From a bacterium (GTDB taxonomy: Bacteria; RBG-13-66-14; B26-G2; WVWN01): DNA of 64,000 bases. The position numbers and the translations under genes were made by a program. Within the stretch, counting starts at the first letter, position 1, and the number at the start of each line of letters is the position of its first letter. Positions 55,932 to 64,000 of this stretch are shown in pieces. Where the stretch lies: the NCBI GenBank assembly GCA_035529855.1, contig DATKVX010000039.1:4244-68243 (forward strand). The letters are read 5' to 3'. The notes under the pieces are model-generated. The model was not told the DNA's origin. It was given only the letters and a program-made list of their open reading frames with translations, and did not search any database.

Positions 55932-57266
55932 CTAAATATTCCCGCGTCGCGTCTGCGCAGCTTGCTTCTCGGCCTCGCACGCGCGGCGACACCGGCCGCA
56001 CTCGAGGCAAAGCGTAGCGTCGACAGCCTCGCGGTTCACGACTATCGCCGCCGTCGGGCAAACGTTTACGCACTCGCGGCACTCGCGGCACTCGAGCCGG
56101 GTAGCCGGCCTTCCCACCGCGGCCACCTCGCCCAATAACGCGCCCGCGGCGCATAAGTACCGGCAAAAAAAGCGGTAGTGGAACGCGGAAACCGCCAGGA
56201 CCGCGACCAGGAACAGCAGCGACATCCCCGCGGCGGCGTACGCGAACAAGTCGTCGAAGGGCTCGTACGTAGCGACGCCCAAATCCCGGCTCGCTATGAA
56301 CGCGGCGACGACGACGCATAATATAATGAAACGCAGGCCGCTGAGGCGCCGCGCGAACTCGGACGCTACTTTTAACTTGCGGACGGGCAGTTTATACAAG
56401 AGCTCCGTCAGCGCGCCGAAGGGGCAAAGCCAACCGCAATATATATTCCCGAAAAACAGCGCCAGCGCCGCGCCGCCCCCCAACAATAAATAGAGCGTAA
56501 GGCGCGGCCCGAACGGCGGGAACTTCCACAAAACCAGCCGGCCTACGTCGCCGATGGAGACGAACCGGCCCGCCCAAAAACCGAGTACTCCCACCGCCGC
56601 CGCGGCGAAGACGGCGCGAACCCATTCCGGCGGCCGCCGCCTGGCCCATATCGCCGCGCCGAAAAACGCCGCCACGACCAGCGCCCAGGCCCAATCCCAA
56701 CCCTCTCGCCCGGCGTCGAGCGGAACGGCGCGACCCAGCGCCGCGTTCAATATCTTGCGGCTCGTCACCCGCGTGGCCGCGGCGAAGGCCTCGCTCGTCA
56801 CCGTGGCCCGCGTTATGGCGTCGACGTCGCGGCCGGGCTCGAGCGGCGCCGTCGCCGGAAGGCCTACGAAAGACGAAAGGAAGTCGGCGACGTCCGCCAC
56901 GTACGACGGCGTTTCGTCGTGCCGCACCAGGACGACGCGGTCGACGGTCCCCGAACCGTCTACGACCACCAGGAGGTCGAACGGGCCGCCGTAGCCGACG
57001 ACCTCCGGCGCGGACGACGCGCTCTCGGCGGCGTAGAGCGTCTCGTCCCCCCGCCTGATGCGCCAATAGGTAATCTCGCCGTCGACCTTCTCCGGGGGCT
57101 CGGTGGCGCCGGTGAGCAACCGCACGCGTTCGGCGTCGAGCTCCCTGGGCGGCGGCTCGACGTGCCGGCCCCAAAAATACGAGCCGGTAAGGGTCGCCGC
57201 GACGACGACTATAAACGTTAACCGGCGAAGCCACCCCCGCCGGCCCCTCGCTACGCCATCGGCCAT
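55932..57266 (-). CDS. Membrane FMN-binding-domain / 4Fe-4S ferredoxin protein (NosR/NapH-like family).
   Basis: An N-terminal periplasmic FMN_bind-like region comes first. TM helices carry the CGWLCPFGAL motif. The C-terminus has CxxCxxC...CP clusters (CRECRECVNVCP, CLECGRCRRAC). Confidence 0.5.
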   Translation of the reverse strand: MADGVARGRRGWLRRLTFIVVVAATLTGSYFWGRHVEPPPRELDAERVRLLTGATEPPEKVDGEITYWRIRRGDETLYAAESASSAPEVVGYGGPFDLLVVVDGSGTVDRVVLVRHDETPSYVADVADFLSSFVGLPATAPLEPGRDVDAITRATVTSEAFAAATRVTSRKILNAALGRAVPLDAGREGWDWAWALVVAAFFGAAIWARRRPPEWVRAVFAAAAVGVLGFWAGRFVSIGDVGRLVLWKFPPFGPRLTLYLLLGGGAALALFFGNIYCGWLCPFGALTELLYKLPVRKLKVASEFARRLSGLRFIILCVVVAAFIASRDLGVATYEPFDDLFAYAAAGMSLLFLVAVLAVSAFHYRFFCRYLCAAGALLGEVAAVGRPATRLECRECRECVNVCPTAAIVVNREAVDATLCLECGRCRRACEAEKQAAQTRRGNI

Positions 57267-57318
57267 ATTTAATCCGTATTATAAGGCCGGCGCGGTAGCC
57301 CTTCAAGGAATATCGGCC

Positions 57319-57347
57319 TTGCCGCGAATACGCCGCGGTGGTAAAAT
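57319..57347 (+). promoter_or_regulatory. Sigma70-like promoter TTGCCG-17-TAAAAT ending only 6 nt before the MFS start codon, so the transcript may be leaderless.
   Basis: ttgccg(57319-24)-cgaatacgccgcggtgg-taaaat(57342-47); ATG at 57354. Confidence 0.4.
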
Positions 57348-57353
57348 ATTACA

Positions 57354-58529
57354 ATGCTCAACGTATTCATCCTCGGCCTGGTATCCTTCTTCGCGGACCT
57401 CCAGTCGGAAATAATATTCCCGCTACTGCCGATTTTCATAACGCAAGACCTCGGCCTGGCCGCCGCCTTCCTGGGCCTTATCGAAGGGGCGGCCGAAGCG
57501 ACCGCCGCCGTCTTTAAATACCTCTCGGGGTATATCTGCGACCGGGCGGGCCGGCACAAGTGGCTAATGTTCGCCGGGTACGCGCTGTCGGTAATCAGCA
57601 AACCCGTGATGGCCTTCGCCCGCTCGGGCCCCGCGGTGCTCGCGCTCCGCGTCGCCGACCGCCTCGGGAAAGGCGTCCGCACGTCGCCGCGCGACGCGCT
57701 GCTGGCGACCTATACGCCGTCGGGCGTCCGCGCCCGCGCCTTCGGCTTCCACCGCGCGCTCGACTCGGCGGGCGCGGTGGGGGGCGTTCTGGTCCTGTTC
57801 GCGCTCCTCAACTATACGGATTTCTCGCACCGCGACATCTTCAAACTAACCCTTATCCCGGGTATCCTCGTAGCGCTCGCCATCCTGGTGTTGGTAAGGC
57901 AGCCCAAACGGGTCAGCTGCCCGGTTCCGCCCAAGATTTTCGATCGCACCGTCGCGGCCGGCTGGTGGCCTTTCCTCGCGTGCCACGCCGTCTACTCTTT
58001 CGGCATGTTCTCGTACGCGTTCTACATCCTGCGCGCGAGCGAGCTCGGCGTCGCGACCGCCCTCGTTCCGCTCATCTACCTGGTCTTCACCGGGGCTCAG
58101 GTCCTGTGGCCGTTCCCCATCGGGTGGCTCGCGGATAAAGTCAAGGTATTGCCGGTCCTGGCGGGGATATATATCTTCCAAGCGGCCGTCCTCATAGCGG
58201 CGGGTTCTATCGGTGAGGCGTGGACCCTTTGGCCGCTGTTCGCGCTGTACGCGCTCTACTATCAAGCCTTCATGGCGCTTCCGCCGGCCTTCGTCTCCAC
58301 GGCCGTACCCGCCGAGAAGCGCGGCGCCGCTATTGGCCTGCTGCATATGACCAGCGGCCTGGCCATCCTGCCGGGGTCCCTCGTAGCGGGCCTAATCTGG
58401 GACCGCTGGCAGGGCGCCGGCACGTTCACCTTCGGCGCGGCGTGCGCGGCGCTCGCGGCCGTCGGCATCCTGGCGTACAACTTCGCGCGGACCCGACGGG
58501 CCGCCGCCGCTCATCAACCAAATGCGTAA
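57354..58529 (+). CDS. MFS transporter.
   Basis: 12 TM helices. Motif A-like GRHKW...ADRLGKGVRTSPRDAL. Confidence 0.7.
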   Translation: MLNVFILGLVSFFADLQSEIIFPLLPIFITQDLGLAAAFLGLIEGAAEATAAVFKYLSGYICDRAGRHKWLMFAGYALSVISKPVMAFARSGPAVLALRVADRLGKGVRTSPRDALLATYTPSGVRARAFGFHRALDSAGAVGGVLVLFALLNYTDFSHRDIFKLTLIPGILVALAILVLVRQPKRVSCPVPPKIFDRTVAAGWWPFLACHAVYSFGMFSYAFYILRASELGVATALVPLIYLVFTGAQVLWPFPIGWLADKVKVLPVLAGIYIFQAAVLIAAGSIGEAWTLWPLFALYALYYQAFMALPPAFVSTAVPAEKRGAAIGLLHMTSGLAILPGSLVAGLIWDRWQGAGTFTFGAACAALAAVGILAYNFARTRRAAAAHQPNA

Positions 58530-59784
58530 ACGTCCTAAAAACGATTCCGTCGGCGACTACCTGCGGCGCCGCGTAACGCTACCGCGGACGTTCAGCGCCC
58601 TCCGCCACCGCGACTTCCGTTTGTGGTGGTTCGGCCAGATGGTCTCGCTGGTGGGAACGTGGGTCCAGATAGTCGCGCAGAACTGGCTGGTATATCGCCT
58701 TACGGGCTCGCCGGCGATGCTGGGCCTGGTCAACTTCGTCGCGCTCGTGCCGGCGCTGCCGATGGGCCTGTGGGCCGGCTCGCTCGCGGACCGCTTCGAT
58801 AAAAAGCGCCTCGTCCTCATCGCGCAGACGCTGATGTTCATCCAGGCCGCGGTCCTCGCCACCCTCACCGTCACCGGCCTCGTCCAGGTCTGGCACGTGA
58901 TGGCGCTGGCCTTCGTCTTCGGCGTAGCGCGCGCGCTCGACGTCCCGGCGCGGCAGGCGTTCGTCGTCGAAATAGTCGGCAAGGAGGACCTCACCAACGC
59001 CATAGCGCTCAACTCCACCGTTTTCAACGTCGCCCGGAGCGCCGGCCCGGCCGTCGCCGGCCTGTTGATCATAGCCGTCGGAGAGGGTTTGGCCTTCGTC
59101 GTCAACGCGGCGACGTTCCTGCCGGTAATAGCGGCGCTGCTCGCGATGAGAACGTCCTCCGTCCGCCGCGAGGTAAAGGGCCCGGCCCACCGCCAGATCG
59201 TCGAGGGAATCCAATACGCCGGTCGGAACAAGCTGGTTTGGGTACTCATCTCGGTAGTGGGCGTCTCGGCGTTCTTCGTCATGCCTTACTCGGTACTGCT
59301 GCCCGTTTTCGCGAAGCAGGTCTTCCGCGGCGGCGCCGACGTATACGGCTACCTGATGACGTTCGCCGGCCTGGGGGCGCTGGTGGGCGCGCTCACCGTC
59401 GCGAGCTTGGGTCCACGCAGCCCTCGGGGCCTACTACTCTCCGGGGCCAACGTCGCGTTCGCGGTGCTCGTCTTCTCCTTCGCGTTCGTTCGCGCGTTCT
59501 GGCTGGCGGCGGCGGTGCTGGCGGCGGCCGGCTTCTGCTTCGTCGTCCAGAACTCGCTGGCCAACACGCTCATCCAACTCAACGTGCCGGACCGGCTGCG
59601 CGGCCGCGTGATGAGCATCTACTTCCTGGTATTTATGGGGGCGATGCGGCTGGGCTCGCTGCAGGCGGGGTACGTCGCGCGGTACGTCGACGTTCAGGCG
59701 GCGCTCCTCATCGGGGCGTCGGCCTCGCTACTCTGGGCCGCCCTGGTCGCCTGGCGCTTCCCGCGGCTTAGGGAGATTAGATAA
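58522..59784 (+). CDS. MFS transporter (EntS/DHA3-like).
   Basis: FSALRHRDFRLWWFGQMVSLVGTWVQIVAQNWLVYRLTGS is the EntS-type N-terminus. It overlaps the upstream MFS gene by 8 bp. Confidence 0.75.
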   Translation: MRKRPKNDSVGDYLRRRVTLPRTFSALRHRDFRLWWFGQMVSLVGTWVQIVAQNWLVYRLTGSPAMLGLVNFVALVPALPMGLWAGSLADRFDKKRLVLIAQTLMFIQAAVLATLTVTGLVQVWHVMALAFVFGVARALDVPARQAFVVEIVGKEDLTNAIALNSTVFNVARSAGPAVAGLLIIAVGEGLAFVVNAATFLPVIAALLAMRTSSVRREVKGPAHRQIVEGIQYAGRNKLVWVLISVVGVSAFFVMPYSVLLPVFAKQVFRGGADVYGYLMTFAGLGALVGALTVASLGPRSPRGLLLSGANVAFAVLVFSFAFVRAFWLAAAVLAAAGFCFVVQNSLANTLIQLNVPDRLRGRVMSIYFLVFMGAMRLGSLQAGYVARYVDVQAALLIGASASLLWAALVAWRFPRLREIR

Positions 59785-59787
59785 AAA

Positions 59788-59820
59788 ATAAGCCGGGCGT
59801 GAGGCCCGGGGTTTTTTTAT
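59788..59820 (+). terminator. Rho-independent terminator after the MFS pair. It also marks the left edge of the AT-rich island.
   Basis: AAAAAATAA-GCCGGGC-GTGAG-GCCCGGG-GTTTTTTTAT. Confidence 0.7.
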
Positions 59821-59853
59821 TAAGGTTTGCGCTTGTAGGAAAAACCGGACGGA

Positions 59854-60798
59854 TTACATCTTTTCTGAAATCAAATAAATAATTGCGTTTAGCCACATAA
59901 TATTCAATTTTCTATTAGTGGTATTAGAGGCGTTATGGTTAAAATAGGAATAGAATAGATTCCAATAATCCTTATCCCATTTTAGTAACCAAGCAGCATC
60001 GTACGTTCCGTGACCTAAATTTTCTTCATCGGTTAAATGATAAAACTTGAAGAGTACTTCGGGTTCGCCTCTAATAAAAGAATTAGGTATATCTTCGTGG
60101 GATTTAATAATCCGCGAGCCGTACGAACCTTCTTCTCCGGGTAATTCTACTCTACCCACCTTTTTACAAATCGGGTGATTGTAATCGAAAGGGTTGACCT
60201 CAACCGTTACGTAAGGTTTATCGAAATGACCTACTTCTCCAAAAAAGTGTAAATCGTGGGTACATACGGCGCTACCGCCCCCGCTTAAATAAGTCTTTAA
60301 TGCGTTTTCTATATCCACCCTTCTATCGTAAATTCCGTAACCAGTGGGGCAATGCTCGTCCGTATAATGTCGATTGTCACCAATTCCAAAGATGCAATCA
60401 TATTCGTTATTTATCTGGCCGACCGCATTTAAGAATTCGACCCGGAAAAACGGGCTAAAAAAATCCCGGAAATGATCTATGTAACTATTATGGCAAATCA
60501 CCAATAGCCTGGGCTTGAATTTCTTATTAACTTTTTTAGGATAGGGTAAAGGCAAGAGCCTTAAGACTTTTTTTTTGTCGTTGTCGGGTGCGGAAATAGT
60601 CGATATAAAGGTTAGAATAACCGCTAAAACCGGTCCTATTATAGTCGCCAACGCTACTATTTTATCTCCCTCAAAATCGAAAACCGCCAAAATTCCTATA
60701 GAAATTACTAAGATAAAAAGGCTTATATAGGTAACGAAAAGAACCCGTCCATACCTTCGATTTAGGTATTTAGTAACCCAATAAAACCCTATTTCCAT
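59854..60798 (-). CDS. Hypothetical 2-TM membrane protein from the AT-rich island; possible PLC-like phosphodiesterase (weak motif-level hint).
   Basis: The N-terminal helices are VLFVTYISLFILVISIGILAV and IVALATIIGPVLAVILTFI. The downstream domain carries LLVICHNSYIDHF, resembling the PI-PLC X-box 'sHNsY'. A second His lies about 50 aa later (NRHYTDEH). RBS GGGAG. AT-rich. Confidence 0.45.
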   Translation of the reverse strand: MEIGFYWVTKYLNRRYGRVLFVTYISLFILVISIGILAVFDFEGDKIVALATIIGPVLAVILTFISTISAPDNDKKKVLRLLPLPYPKKVNKKFKPRLLVICHNSYIDHFRDFFSPFFRVEFLNAVGQINNEYDCIFGIGDNRHYTDEHCPTGYGIYDRRVDIENALKTYLSGGGSAVCTHDLHFFGEVGHFDKPYVTVEVNPFDYNHPICKKVGRVELPGEEGSYGSRIIKSHEDIPNSFIRGEPEVLFKFYHLTDEENLGHGTYDAAWLLKWDKDYWNLFYSYFNHNASNTTNRKLNIMWLNAIIYLISEKM

Positions 60799-60860
60799 CT
60801 CATTCGCTCCCGCGGTCGTAGGTCGCAGCGGTCTATGTGTTGGATTGTTTTTTCAATTTA

Positions 60861-61469
60861 TTAATAATTATCGTCTATGAAATTTCCGAGGGCCGCCAAT
60901 ATCTCCTCAATAGAAAGGTTGTTTGGAGCTTGGCGTGCCGCCCACCTGCGCCCAGGATGGACGGTATCCCATAACGAACGTTGCTGCTTGCGCCTACCGC
61001 CCCCCGGGTCGTGGAGGCCAAAGCCATCCAAGTATAAATTCCATACGGGCCTAGTCGAAGTTATGACGAGCGTTTCACCCAAAGGTATCCATATATCGTC
61101 CGCAATTAAGTACCTACAACGAAAATCGGATAAATCCAAATTTTCTGCTTGGTTTATAGATTCGCCGTGCTCTCGCAAACGGTTATATAATGCGTTACCC
61201 GGCGGTTCGTCTAAACGCAGTATACCCCTCCGCGATCCCGGCGGTATTGCTTTCCCAACGTATATAGGTAGTCCCCATCTATCATCGGCGTTCCTATCAG
61301 CAATGCGCGAATAATAACCCAAAGGGCCTATATAATAAATGGCGTAAATACCCGCGCCTTCGAAAGAACTCCCGGGGGGTAAATTAGTAACGCCCCTTTC
61401 GAAAAGGGCTTCCTTTAAGCTTTTCCCAAGATTAGCTTTATCCAAAGGGTTATAAGGTTTCTCGTTCAT
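60861..61469 (-). CDS. GIY-YIG type II restriction endonuclease, Eco29kI/NgoMIII-family-like.
   Basis: GAGIYAIYYIGP...LPIYVGKAIPPG form GIY...YVG motifs. I also recall (from memory, with no database access) that NLDLSDFRCRY and WDTVHPGRRWA resemble conserved blocks in Eco29kI-family enzymes, which cut CCGCGG. The start overlaps the MTase stop by 4 bp. Confidence 0.55.
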   Translation of the reverse strand: MNEKPYNPLDKANLGKSLKEALFERGVTNLPPGSSFEGAGIYAIYYIGPLGYYSRIADRNADDRWGLPIYVGKAIPPGSRRGILRLDEPPGNALYNRLREHGESINQAENLDLSDFRCRYLIADDIWIPLGETLVITSTRPVWNLYLDGFGLHDPGGGRRKQQRSLWDTVHPGRRWAARQAPNNLSIEEILAALGNFIDDNY

Positions 61470-62848
61470 AAACCCGGTTTTTCCACTACGACCGCGGCGT
61501 CGTAAAGGCTACGTTTTTCGCCGTTACCGTACCTTACCGTTGAGTCCGTAATACTCGAACCGACACGTTTATCTCTAATAATGTACGTACCGACGAACTT
61601 TAACCCGTGTTCGCGAGCGATTTCCCCGAATAATCGGTCTACTTCAATTTCAATACCTTGGATTACGGAATTACCTATAACTATTACTGCACTCCCGCCG
61701 GTTTTCAATACCCTACTTACGATCTCCCAGAAAACGTAGGTATCGTTAAAATACGAAGCCACGTAGTTCGCCCACCCCGAGCCGCCGTAAACGCCGGCTT
61801 CCTTACGGGTTTCCTTTAATTCCGATAGAATCGCCCGTAATTCCTCATACTCGAACGTCAAAGGAACGTCTTCCAGGCCCCGGACTTCTTGCCAGTATTT
61901 ACCGAAATTCCCGGTTTCCAGCCCCTTTTGTTCATCAGGTTTCGAAACGAAAGACAACCAATATAATTGAGGTCTCGTATTTCTTACGTAATGGTAGTTA
62001 TTCAAATAAGGCGGGGACGTTATTAATAAATCTACAGAATTATCCTCGACCGTATGGTGGTCGGAAAGGAAATTAGCATGCCTTATCCTAGCATCCCCTA
62101 AACTTTCTGGCCTTTTTATCAGCCCCTTTACGGATATTATATCATCCAACATCTCTCGACATTTCCCGGACAATACCCGCGCAAAATCAGCGTCCTTCAT
62201 TGCCGGTTTCCCGGCACTCCTGCGCGTCCCCAAACTAGGCTCGTAGGAATAATTCGAAACGCCGACCATCACCGAGCCGAAGGCGATGCGGAATAAGTCC
62301 TTTATAAGACCGTCATCTATTCTATCGATATAATCTAACGCGTGTAGTACTTGTTTTTCTATACGGGGGCTAAAAAACGGTTCTTTAGTTTTCAAAGGGG
62401 GTTTTTCGATATTGGGGGCCGGCGTACTACGCCATTTAGAGGAAAGGTCCTCTAATTCTAATACCCTAGATCTAAGCGCCTCGATATTTACGGAAAGGCA
62501 TCTCGCTTTTGTACTAGCCGCTAATGAAGCGTAAGGGTTAATATCGAAACCTACGGCGTCGTAGCCCCTCACGACCGCTTGAAATATCGTCGTTCCGACG
62601 CCGGCAAACGGGTCTAAAATAACGGGCGTTTCCGTTTCAACGTCCGATTGAAGGTACAAATCGAAAACGCTATCGACGAAGCCTGCCGAAAACCCGGCGA
62701 TCCAAGGGACCCAGCGGTGTATAGGGGACTTTTTATTTTCAAAAAAAGCCGGGTCTTTTAAACCGTTATTCGTTTTCGGACTAACCCTATTCGAGAAAAG
62801 AACTCGCTGATAACTATCGCGGATTTTTTGTTGGTCTAATCGCGGCAT
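61466..62848 (-). CDS. DNA amino-methyltransferase (N4-C or N6-A, PF01555-like) with motif I (DPFAGVGTT) placed before motif IV (TSPPY).
   Basis: DPFAGVGTT at about aa 80 and LLITSPPYLNNYHY at about aa 270, counting from M18. A GAGGAG RBS precedes the ATG at 62846-62848; the ORF-track start is an upstream TTG. AT-rich. Confidence 0.65.
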   Translation of the reverse strand: MPRLDQQKIRDSYQRVLFSNRVSPKTNNGLKDPAFFENKKSPIHRWVPWIAGFSAGFVDSVFDLYLQSDVETETPVILDPFAGVGTTIFQAVVRGYDAVGFDINPYASLAASTKARCLSVNIEALRSRVLELEDLSSKWRSTPAPNIEKPPLKTKEPFFSPRIEKQVLHALDYIDRIDDGLIKDLFRIAFGSVMVGVSNYSYEPSLGTRRSAGKPAMKDADFARVLSGKCREMLDDIISVKGLIKRPESLGDARIRHANFLSDHHTVEDNSVDLLITSPPYLNNYHYVRNTRPQLYWLSFVSKPDEQKGLETGNFGKYWQEVRGLEDVPLTFEYEELRAILSELKETRKEAGVYGGSGWANYVASYFNDTYVFWEIVSRVLKTGGSAVIVIGNSVIQGIEIEVDRLFGEIAREHGLKFVGTYIIRDKRVGSSITDSTVRYGNGEKRSLYDAAVVVEKPGL

Positions 62849-62920
62849 GTTCTTTTTACTCCTCGTTGTGATAATATAATTATGAGCTGGAAACGTCAAC
62901 TTAAAATATTCCTAAAAAAC

Positions 62921-64000
62921 TTACCCCGGGTGCCAGCCGGCCTTGACCGTCTCGTAGAGGCCGCCGGGGAGGCCGGGCAGCAGCTCCGCCCGCTCGAGCG
63001 CGCCGCGGCCGTACCGCCGGTTCAGCTCGTCCAGCGTCGCCGTGAAGCGGTCCCGCCTCACCTCGAAGAGGTTGCCCGGCTTGCAGTGGTACAGCAGCAT
63101 CGAGGCCGAGACCCCCAGCATCCGCACGCCGCGCTCGCTCATGTCGCCGGGCAGGAGCGGCCAAGCCGCGCGAAAGACGTCCATCCCCTCGTCGACGTAG
63201 CGCGGGAGCCGGTGCGAACGGCCCACGGTGTAGAAGTCCGGGTAGCGCGCGACGGCGTAGACGCACCGGCCGCAGTACCCCTCGCCGCGCAGCCGCCGCG
63301 CCACCCGCTCGCACAGCCACAGGAACGTCCGCCGTAGCTCCGCGGCGTCGTAGGTGTCGCGGTTGAGCGTGATGGTGTTGCCGACGGACTTGGCCTCCTC
63401 GTAGTCGTAGTGCGCCGTCAGCGGCCGGCGGTCTATCCCCCGCCCCATGTTCTGCAGCACTTCGCCGACGATGCCGAAGCGCGCCTTCAGGCGCGACAAG
63501 GACAGGCGGCCGAGCTGGCCGCACGTGCTCGCGCCCAGCCGCCGCAGGTGCTCGCCCAGCTTGTCGCCGATGCCGGGCAGATCCGTCGTCGGCAGCTCCT
63601 CCAGGAAGGTCTCGAGCTGGGAGGGCCTGAGGACCGTGAGGCCGTTGGGCTTCTCGAGGCCGGCGGCCACCTTCGCGAGCATCTTGTTGGGCGCGACGCC
63701 CAGCGAGCACGGGAGGCCGAGCTCCTCGCGGACCTCGCGCTGAAAGGCCGCGGCGCAGTCGCGCGGCGTCCCCCACCGGCGGAACGTCGTCGTGACGTCC
63801 AGGGCCAGCTCGTCGATGGAGGCTATTTCGACCACGGGGGTGTAGTTGTGCGCCCGGGCGACGACCTCGCGGATGGCGTGGGTGTACTTGGAGATGTCGG
63901 CGGGGACGACGACGGCGTCGCGGCAGAGCCGCCGCGCCTCCTCGGAGGGCATGCCGGATTTGACGCCGAACGTACGCGTCTCGTAGGAGCAGGCGGCGAC
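62921..64000 (-). CDS. dinB: DNA polymerase IV (Y-family), partial: the N-terminus lies beyond the window end.
   Basis: ...LGLPCSLGVAPNKMLAKVAAGLEKPNGLTVL...DLPGIGDKLGEHLRRLG... shows the DinB palm, thumb and little-finger motifs. Confidence 0.8.
   Translation of the reverse strand, partial: VAACSYETRTFGVKSGMPSEEARRLCRDAVVVPADISKYTHAIREVVARAHNYTPVVEIASIDELALDVTTTFRRWGTPRDCAAAFQREVREELGLPCSLGVAPNKMLAKVAAGLEKPNGLTVLRPSQLETFLEELPTTDLPGIGDKLGEHLRRLGASTCGQLGRLSLSRLKARFGIVGEVLQNMGRGIDRRPLTAHYDYEEAKSVGNTITLNRDTYDAAELRRTFLWLCERVARRLRGEGYCGRCVYAVARYPDFYTVGRSHRLPRYVDEGMDVFRAAWPLLPGDMSERGVRMLGVSASMLLYHCKPGNLFEVRRDRFTATLDELNRRYGRGALERAELLPGLPGGLYETVKAGWHPG

Follow-up and report, generated by a model that had tools for sequence, protein, structure and literature searches.

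On the minus strand of a 64,000-nucleotide (nt) stretch of the bacterial contig DATKVX010000039.1 (the window, below), three co-oriented genes at 59854-62848 form an AT-rich island of ~3.1 kb that adjoins dinB. The first two genes to be read encode a DNA methyltransferase (M) and a restriction endonuclease (R), and the third encodes a membrane protein of 314 amino acids (aa) that belongs to no named family. We consider it likely that the island is a composite, in which a Type II restriction-modification (R-M) operon and an independent third cargo gene have both lodged at the 3ʹ end of dinB, a hotspot for insertions. The trio is not conserved as a module. The third gene is judged to be independent of the R-M pair because it is absent from the cassettes of a sister genome, because its family occupies about 9 loci as compared with more than 3340 Eco29kI-family proteins, and because six of its loci have no defence neighbour. 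The genes, as given by the open reading frame (ORF) list of the window and by profile and motif matches, are as follows.

59854-60798, minus strand: third gene, encoding the 314-aa protein (ORF list).
60861-61469, minus strand: R gene, encoding an Eco29kI-family GIY-YIG Type II restriction endonuclease of 202 aa (PF09517, PADLOC and Protein Data Bank (PDB) matches).
61466-62848, minus strand: M gene, encoding a DNA amino-methyltransferase of 460 aa (PF01555, PADLOC MTase_II and motif order).

An initial annotation of this DNA had described three co-oriented AT-rich genes lying exactly between a terminator and dinB, and had suggested that they might constitute a novel defence module. The ORFs are as it described them, and the compositional shift is borne out quantitatively. 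The GC content is 0.378 for the third gene, 0.478 for R and 0.463 for M, versus a window background of 0.634, with z-scores of -7.0, -3.7 and -5.3, respectively, relative to background windows of equal length. The difference is more pronounced at third codon positions, where the GC content is 0.38, 0.47 and 0.49 (third gene, R and M) versus 0.97 for dinB and 0.87 for the gene on the other flank, which encodes a transporter of the major facilitator superfamily (MFS). The island spans precisely from the dinB stop codon to an intrinsic terminator that proved to be bidirectional, with a stem of six G-C pairs (59793-59809; -15.3 and -11.9 kcal/mol; z ~ -2.6 on each strand). This terminator is homologous to the native terminator of the sister genome (local alignment to L004 8730-8761), and therefore the island comprises everything between the dinB stop codon and the native terminator. 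It is a foreign, horizontally acquired unit. No integrase, transposase or meaningful flanking repeat is present within the window, as the initial annotation had noted; repeats within the island are limited to short matches at chance level, and no Rfam match was found over 57000-64000. The regulatory elements and flanking genes are arranged as follows.

60799-60860, minus strand: spacer of 62 nt from R to the third gene, with the ribosome-binding site (RBS) GGGAG 8 nt before the ATG at 60798.
62871-62899, minus strand: sigma-70-like promoter TTGACG-17-TATTAT (10 of 12 positions), followed by the RBS GAGGAG before the ATG at 62848 (a motif match, with a putative function).
59793-59809 (stem), both strands: bidirectional intrinsic terminator, common to the island operon (minus) and the MFS gene (plus), found by folding.
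62921-64000, continuing beyond the window end, minus strand: 3ʹ part of dinB, of native composition (GC 0.72), encoding 435 aa on the full contig.
58522-59784, plus strand: native MFS_3 transporter gene on the other flank (profile match; 90-92% aa identity to the sister genome).

The M ORF is listed as 61466-62899, but its true start is likely to be the ATG at 62848, because an RBS precedes this codon and because the 460-aa product is also the call on a public contig of identical sequence. The M stop codon and the R start codon overlap by 4 bp, so that the overlapping pair reported initially is confirmed, and the distance from R to the third gene is 62 nt rather than the 63 bp first given. All three genes are probably carried on one transcript, because the promoter lies ahead of M and because the spacer at 60799-60860 contains neither a terminator nor significant structure (fold z = -0.63). 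The promoter block is also kept ahead of the M gene of the sister cassette, as revealed by sequence comparison.

The assignment of R to the Eco29kI family, proposed initially from its GIY-YIG and other motifs, is confirmed by several comparisons. R matches PF09517 (RE_Eco29kI) with an E value of 2e-60 and 203.8 bits (cut-off 30.8 bits) over profile positions 2-162 of 164, and matches PADLOC REase_II with an E value of 1.4e-59. Its alignment with the Eco29kI structures (PDB 3mx4/3nic; E 6e-39) spans residues 26-179 at moderate identity. Moreover, residues Y42, Y70, R97, H101, E132 and N144 of R align with Y49, Y76, R104, H108, E142 and N154 of Eco29kI, and thus all six catalytic residues are kept. 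The active-site residues of Eco29kI were defined by modelling and, except for Y76, were tested by mutagenesis (PMC1952068). On the basis of its family, R most likely cuts a CCGCGG-like site. This hexamer is not depleted in the window, where it occurs 154 times versus ~142 occurrences expected from the counts of CCGCG, CGCGG and CGCG (CCGCG x CGCGG / CGCG), a ratio that says nothing either way on specificity.

The M protein matches PF01555 with 41.7 bits (cut-off 26.7 bits) and matches the PADLOC MTase_II model PDLC03224 over its full length (E 5.6e-32). An FxGxG motif (FAGVGTT) begins at residue 81 and an SPPY motif at residue 278 of 460, such that motif I precedes motif IV in the alpha-type order. 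This arrangement is permuted relative to the beta-class template 2zie, in which SPPY comes first, and agrees with the permuted amino-methyltransferase described in the initial annotation. An N-terminal FxGxG combined with a C-terminal SPPY is the signature that has been used to call alpha-class N4-methylcytosine (m4C) methyltransferases (PMC10855626), and these motifs suggest that M is probably an m4C methylase. R and M are adjacent on the same strand, as is required of a Type II R-M system, and the PADLOC models MTase_II and REase_II both match. We are therefore highly confident that the pair is a Type II R-M operon of a standard but uncommonly configured kind.

The closest relatives of R (85-86% aa identity) reside in the sister genome GCA_964631855.1 and in related contigs, always at the same dinB-MFS locus. 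The order of genes in the sister genome is dinB, a first cassette (M318 and p204), a second, Eco29kI-type cassette (M461 and R202), the terminator, a GC-rich native gene for a 187-aa protein, and the MFS gene. The flanks of the window and sister loci are 88-90% identical at the nucleotide level and the R-M cassette that they have in common is 73% identical, whereas the region of the 314-aa gene is unique to the window genome. Amino acid identities between the two genomes are 91.5% for dinB, 90-92% for MFS, 85.6% for R and 65.4% for M. The cassette is thus more diverged than the host genes, which suggests that related cassettes were acquired independently, or exchanged, at a single hotspot. The difference between M (65%) and R (86%) is itself unusual for a cognate pair (window 61466-62848 versus L004 6619-8004); possible reasons for this asymmetry are a loosening of constraint and recombination within the target-recognition region.

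The sister genome also offers a view of how such cassettes are placed. The last ~57 bp of dinB recur there as a 57-bp copy (93-96% identity) before M461 and as a 27-bp copy (100% identity) after R202, directly before the terminator. If each copy is denoted as an attachment-like site (att), the layout in loci L004 and L007 reads dinB[att]-M318-p204-[att 57 bp]-M461-R202-[att 27 bp]-terminator. The positions of the direct copies, which are the same in L007, are as follows.

L004 4727-4826: full dinB 3ʹ end.
L004 6492-6548: 57-bp direct copy.
L004 8699-8725: 27-bp direct copy.

The real dinB end and the 57-bp copy flank M318 and p204, and the Eco29kI-type cassette lies between the 57-bp and 27-bp copies; each sister cassette is therefore bracketed by direct target repeats. 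The copies shorten with distance from dinB, and they bracket two stacked R-M cassettes that lack a mobility gene. The initial annotation had called the insertion mechanism unclear. This is now answered in part by the bracketing repeats of the sister genome, whereas in the window no second copy of the dinB end is present. A search for a degenerate remnant of the repeat in the spacer between R and the third gene, or after the third gene, yielded nothing above chance (954 of 2000 shuffles scored as well), and no genome with an empty site, that is, a dinB locus without a cassette, was found. The mechanism for the window is inferred from its relatives because the distal repeat is missing.

In the protein encoded by the third gene, a Lys/Arg-rich linker connects a hairpin of two transmembrane (TM) helices (about residues 19-39 and 47-69) to a soluble domain. 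Hydropathy and charge analysis reveals four Lys or Arg residues within the first 18 positions, an acidic outside loop and ten Lys or Arg residues after the second helix. By the positive-inside rule, the N terminus and the soluble domain should both face the cytoplasm. The initial description of a two-TM protein without a named family is therefore upheld. Faint matches to YesK and S_4TM (E 0.02-0.08) involve only the hydrophobic hairpin and were dismissed. The top structural matches of the predicted fold are alpha/beta folds of the ThuA-like and class-I glutamine amidotransferase (GATase) type, and the predicted structure has the three-dimensional fold of a ThuA-like domain. A single-sequence AlphaFold2 model had a mean predicted local distance difference test (pLDDT) of 39.6 and was not used.

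An alignment of nine family sequences provides a complementary view of the soluble domain. Residues Y133, R160, H181, D182, H184, G190, F192, H208, E222 and W270 are invariant, as are L271, K273, N280, F282, Y283, H288, N304, A305 and Y308. The invariant H181-D182-x-H184 element (HDxH) follows the central strand at the position expected for a nucleophile elbow. The Cys nucleophile of class-I GATases is not conserved, given that C179 occurs only in the two short members of the family. Eight relatives of the 314-aa protein score 15.3-28.1 bits against PF06283 (ThuA), restricted to the C-terminal half and all below the gathering score of 33.4 bits, and the GH...NA motif near the C terminus of the family resembles that of ThuA-like proteins. 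On this modelled fold and these sub-threshold matches, the protein is best described as a remote ThuA-like, membrane-tethered protein without a named family.

The initial annotation had read a CHNSY...H string in this protein as the catalytic His pair of a phospholipase C (PLC)-like phosphodiesterase, which would make the protein a lipid or phosphodiester hydrolase effector. The string is present, and this local resemblance is all that speaks for the idea. No profile of the PI-PLC-X or GDPD type matches the protein at E<=1 or E<=10, and no PI-PLC match appears in Pfam even at E<=10. In the closest homolog, a Ser takes the place of the His of the string (H103), which is not conserved in the other members among the nine either. 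Finally, the predicted fold is ThuA-like/class-I GATase and not a TIM barrel. At the level of such comparisons, the PLC-like reading was rejected on these three grounds of profile, conservation and fold, and we regard such an activity as extremely improbable.

A different proposal consistent with the fold is that the third gene is an ordinary sugar-metabolism ThuA, acting in the 3-keto-disaccharide pathway and captured by chance. Both the fold and the C-terminal GH...NA motif are ThuA-like. However, the family reaches only 15-28 bits against a cut-off of 33.4 bits and matches in the C-terminal half only, all members carry a membrane anchor, and low GC content combined with allele swapping is atypical of a core catabolic gene. 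In addition, no ThuB-type oxidoreductase, sugar transporter or uptake gene adjoins the third gene in any of the nine loci. The literature assigns no defined chemistry to ThuA beyond its role with ThuB in forming 3-keto-disaccharides. We therefore consider a metabolic ThuA to be very unlikely, and a remote ThuA-like protein remains our preferred description.

Relatives of the 314-aa protein are rare. A word-indexed search of 5.8 billion clusters recovered only the protein itself, and a profile version of this search recovered only P0126. An exhaustive phmmer search of 1.84 billion representatives yielded five true relatives (P0122, P0123, P0125, P0126 and P0127), with a sixth entry, P0124, rejected as a repeat-protein artefact. 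P0122 is the closest homolog, at 43% identity, and the other four are 32-37% identical over matched stretches and 22-27% identical to the window protein in the full alignment. Scans at the DNA level added members from a Zixibacteriota metagenome-assembled genome and from three metagenome contigs, whereas viral contigs contained no relative. In total, the family occupies about nine distinct loci in a collection of ~15 billion proteins and three DNA contig collections. Neither the 314-aa protein nor its relatives match PADLOC-DB 2.0, NCBIfam or PHROGs models, and PADLOC assigns no defence family to the 314-aa protein, P0122 or P0126; the searches proposed initially, with PI-PLC-X and with defence-system models (made here with PADLOC), thus returned no match for the third protein. 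Matches from a fold search of the BFVD database were confined to generic GATase-like proteins encoded by giant viruses and herpesviruses.

Every member of the family has a GC content of 0.38-0.43 in a context of 0.61-0.69. Two members, the window protein and P0122, are short and carry two TM helices. The gene for P0122 (L012) is co-oriented with, and 41 nt upstream of, genes for an unrelated D12-class methyltransferase and a SacI-like endonuclease, and these three genes make up a low-GC islet of 3 kb that is flanked by GC-rich genes. The seven long members carry three TM helices and all reside in one syntenic housekeeping neighbourhood of Zixibacteria-like genomes, with genes for isocitrate/isopropylmalate dehydrogenase, a DUF1902 protein, lipoproteins and aconitase. 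One of these, P0126 (L009), is followed by a gene for a trypsin-like protease and by one for a UG21-class defence reverse transcriptase (E 2e-58). No host genes are shared between the window and the other loci, and no second family copy was found.

Comparison of the long-member loci indicates that the gene moves among close relatives. Between L015 and L022, the aconitases are 91% identical and the ThuA-like proteins 28%, whereas between L019 and L022 these values are 76% and 79%. The gene tree is incongruent with the host, and therefore divergent alleles have been exchanged among close relatives at one hotspot. A second low-GC gene (0.40-0.42) occurs beside or near the ThuA-like gene in two of these loci (L015 1651-2487 and L019 11618-12454). 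The encoded 278-aa proteins carry an N-terminal TM helix, are 34% identical to each other and have no Pfam, PADLOC or PHROGs match; they could be other cargo of the hotspot or a partner of the ThuA-like gene. A 277-aa gene beyond dinB was considered as a relative of these proteins and is unrelated. In Zixibacteria-like genomes, a small DUF1902 (HicB-like) protein marks the upstream edge of the long-allele hotspot, at the following positions.

L009 356-571: DUF1902 (HicB-like) protein.
L019 7614-7856: DUF1902 (HicB-like) protein.
L024 1065-1307: DUF1902 (HicB-like) protein.
L028 5314-5556: DUF1902 (HicB-like) protein.

These loci bear directly on the proposal that the three genes of the island are one functional defence module, with the membrane protein serving as an accessory or abortive-infection effector of the R-M pair. 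A single promoter and a single terminator give the island the appearance of an operon; P0122 likewise stands co-oriented beside its unrelated D12-methyltransferase/SacI-like pair in a low-GC islet of three genes; and another member lies beside the UG21 defence reverse transcriptase and the trypsin-like protease. The initial annotation had asked whether the three genes always travel together, and related genomes indicate that they do not, since the nearest same-site relatives of the R-M pair (L004-L008) lack the third gene and their cassette is closed by the att repeat directly after R; absence of the third gene from other instances of the pair was an outcome that the initial annotation had named as refuting its idea. 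Furthermore, neither an R-M gene nor any other defence gene lies near six of the nine family loci, and the GC content of the third gene (0.378) differs from that of the R-M pair (0.46-0.48). The three loci that do have a defence partner also each have a different one (R-M pairs of two unrelated kinds and a UG21 reverse transcriptase), which fits co-location at hotspots better than a fixed partnership. The parallel with P0122 partly supports the proposed module, but we judge a functional three-gene unit to be unlikely.

A second possibility, which treats the third gene on its own, is that it encodes an autonomous single-gene conflict determinant of a kind not described before, directed against phages or mobile genetic elements (MGEs), that shares hotspots with defence genes. 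Low GC content, allele swapping and defence neighbours are traits of genes that are conflict-related or otherwise under frequency-dependent selection. All members are AT-rich, close relatives have swapped divergent alleles at one locus, known defence genes adjoin three of the nine loci (the window, L012 and L009), and a membrane anchor is combined with a conserved putative active site. However, the remaining six loci have no defence neighbour, in a sample that is small and phylogenetically narrow and includes several short contigs, and a share of 33% lies below the thresholds usually applied as a rule of thumb for guilt by association in defence-island screens. Defence genes are in any case enriched in low-GC islets, and with so high a base rate the three adjacent cases carry little weight; the sample is also tiny and drawn from few lineages. 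No member matches PADLOC or PHROGs models, and no ThuA-like defence effector is known, the sole link in the literature being an anecdotal ThuA-domain mutation in phage-resistant C. acnes. This possibility is therefore doubtful, although it is less so than the module, and as a candidate conflict gene the third gene is weak.

A composite island with an independent third gene remains the reading that we favour, but several observations weigh against it. All three genes could have been acquired together as one cassette: no terminator separates R from the third gene, and the window lacks the distal att copy of the sister genome at precisely the place that the third gene occupies. P0122, too, is co-oriented with another R-M pair, 41 nt away, in a similar 3-kb low-GC islet. 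For the enzymes, m4C modification and CCGCGG specificity are read from motifs and family membership. For the third protein, the structural model was built on a six-sequence alignment and has a mean pLDDT of 69 with weak loops, and the 314-aa protein itself does not match the ThuA profile (PF06283), such that the link to ThuA runs through its homologs and the fold.

If the island is such a composite, its genes might operate in the following manner. The promoter carried by the cassette would drive expression of M first and then of the overlapping R gene, in a compact Type IIP operon. M would methylate host sites, and R would cut unmethylated incoming DNA, most likely at a CCGCGG-like site. The third gene would apparently be read through from the cassette promoter, with transcription ended by the native terminator, although its product would not be a component of the R-M system; rather, its AT-rich, horizontally exchanged family would act on its own. 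The 314-aa protein may use a conserved His/Asp/Glu cluster, located at the nucleophile-elbow position, to act on the inner face of the membrane. We would guess that it is a binding module or a hydrolase that depends on a metal or on His, with a conflict- or envelope-related role. As judged from the sister genomes, the last ~57 bp of dinB would be the target of insertion and duplication.

The window and sister genomes document the 3ʹ end of dinB as a hotspot for stacked R-M cassettes, which are accompanied by long target repeats but by no mobility genes. The third gene adds an unnamed family of ~9 loci that displays the population-genetic signs of conflict genes and whose fold has yet to be connected with immunity, although the evidence is thin. 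Anyone who mines genomes for candidate defence genes may wish to take note of this orphan family and of the hotspot at dinB. Tentatively, and at odds that we consider poor, the 314-aa protein might be the first sign of a new family, in which ThuA-like proteins tethered to the membrane and facing the cytoplasm serve as stand-alone anti-phage or anti-MGE determinants with an invariant HDxH...H...E...H site. If so, divergent AT-rich alleles would be exchanged at hotspots of GC-rich sediment bacteria (Zixibacteria-like organisms and relatives), repeatedly beside R-M systems and defence reverse transcriptases, and an effector with a ThuA/GATase fold would be a new biochemical type in prokaryotic immunity.

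Further features of the dinB region were encountered in these comparisons. A second low-GC, R-M-like cassette is present on the other side of dinB in both genomes (L001 4493-6476 and L004 1203-3402). Its methyltransferases are 83% identical, whereas the adjacent putative nucleases are unrelated (277 aa with a weak SAP match versus 350 aa with a weak EVE match), which suggests that the restriction partner has been swapped beside a conserved methylase. This cassette is followed, near dinB and beyond the window end (L001 1-4400), by genes for a PemK-family toxin, LexA and a protein with Schlafen/AlbA_2 and HATPase_c_4 domains that has weak PADLOC matches to models associated with prokaryotic Argonaute (pAgo). 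As a whole, the dinB-lexA neighbourhood looks like a defence/SOS hotspot. On the opposite flank, the GC-rich native 187-aa gene (L004 8780-9343), located between the terminator and the MFS gene, is missing from the window genome (59785-59853); its presence or absence is an independent indel at the same junction. The C-terminal ...PTSIGRVKALYY tail of its product recurs in a protein of 199 aa in L001. Elsewhere in the window, only one further islet of markedly low GC content is present; it lies at 701-2000 (GC 0.47) and contains an ORF at about 836-1870 on the minus strand, beside a gene for a LivH-like permease. The product of this ORF is likely to be secreted and has a bacterial SH3_3 domain at its C terminus (26.5 bits, a score slightly below the cut-off), and the 661-aa ORF listed at this islet is an artificial read-through into the opposite frame of its neighbour.

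Several known systems resemble parts of the island. Proteins of the ThuA-like group (PF06283; PDB 1t0b, 4jqs and 4e5v) share the fold predicted for the third-gene family, but this family is sub-threshold for the profile, lacks the ThuB or sugar-transport context, and adds an N-terminal anchor of two or three TM helices and its own invariant HDxH elbow motif. Catalytic class-I GATases employ a Cys-His-Glu triad, whereas the third-gene family has no conserved Cys.

The placement of the cassettes is reminiscent of R-M systems that lack mobility genes and are inserted with long target duplication, as described by Nobusato, Furuta and Kobayashi (PMC2853133). In that work, an insert was recognized when it carried both R and M, was shorter than 20 kb and was flanked by a direct target duplication of >30 bp (PMC2853133). 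The sister cassettes are alike in being compact, arranged in tandem, devoid of a mobility gene and accompanied by 57-bp and 27-bp copies of the dinB 3ʹ end; the window differs in that the distal repeat is missing. Alternatives to long target duplication are site-specific integration by an unseen integrase and exchange through flanking homology.

With respect to the R-M pair, Eco29kI and Cfr42I (CCGC/GG; PMC1952068, PMC2241918) belong to the same endonuclease family as R, which keeps the six active-site residues at only moderate identity to Eco29kI. All 310 CCGCGG systems that one study could assemble from REBASE carry 5-methylcytosine (m5C) methyltransferases (PMC10855626), whereas the window pair uses an amino-methyltransferase. 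The closer parallel is DraI of Deinococcus radiodurans, which consists of M.DraR1 and the Eco29kI-like R.DraR1, is specific for CCGCGG and is one of only three such systems found in REBASE (2024; PMC10855626). Like the window pair, DraI combines an Eco29kI-like GIY-YIG endonuclease with an alpha-order amino-methyltransferase that carries FxGxG and SPPY. Its two genes lie ~10 ORFs apart in D. radiodurans, whereas those of the window overlap by 4 bp in one operon. Because M bears the published signature beside an Eco29kI-family R, the pair appears to belong to this known but rarely described DraI-like kind, a likeness of architecture and motifs from which m4C modification and CCGCGG recognition would follow. 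The window thus provides a compact, adjacent-gene example of an Eco29kI-type nuclease with an SPPY amino-methyltransferase, a combination that is rare in REBASE.

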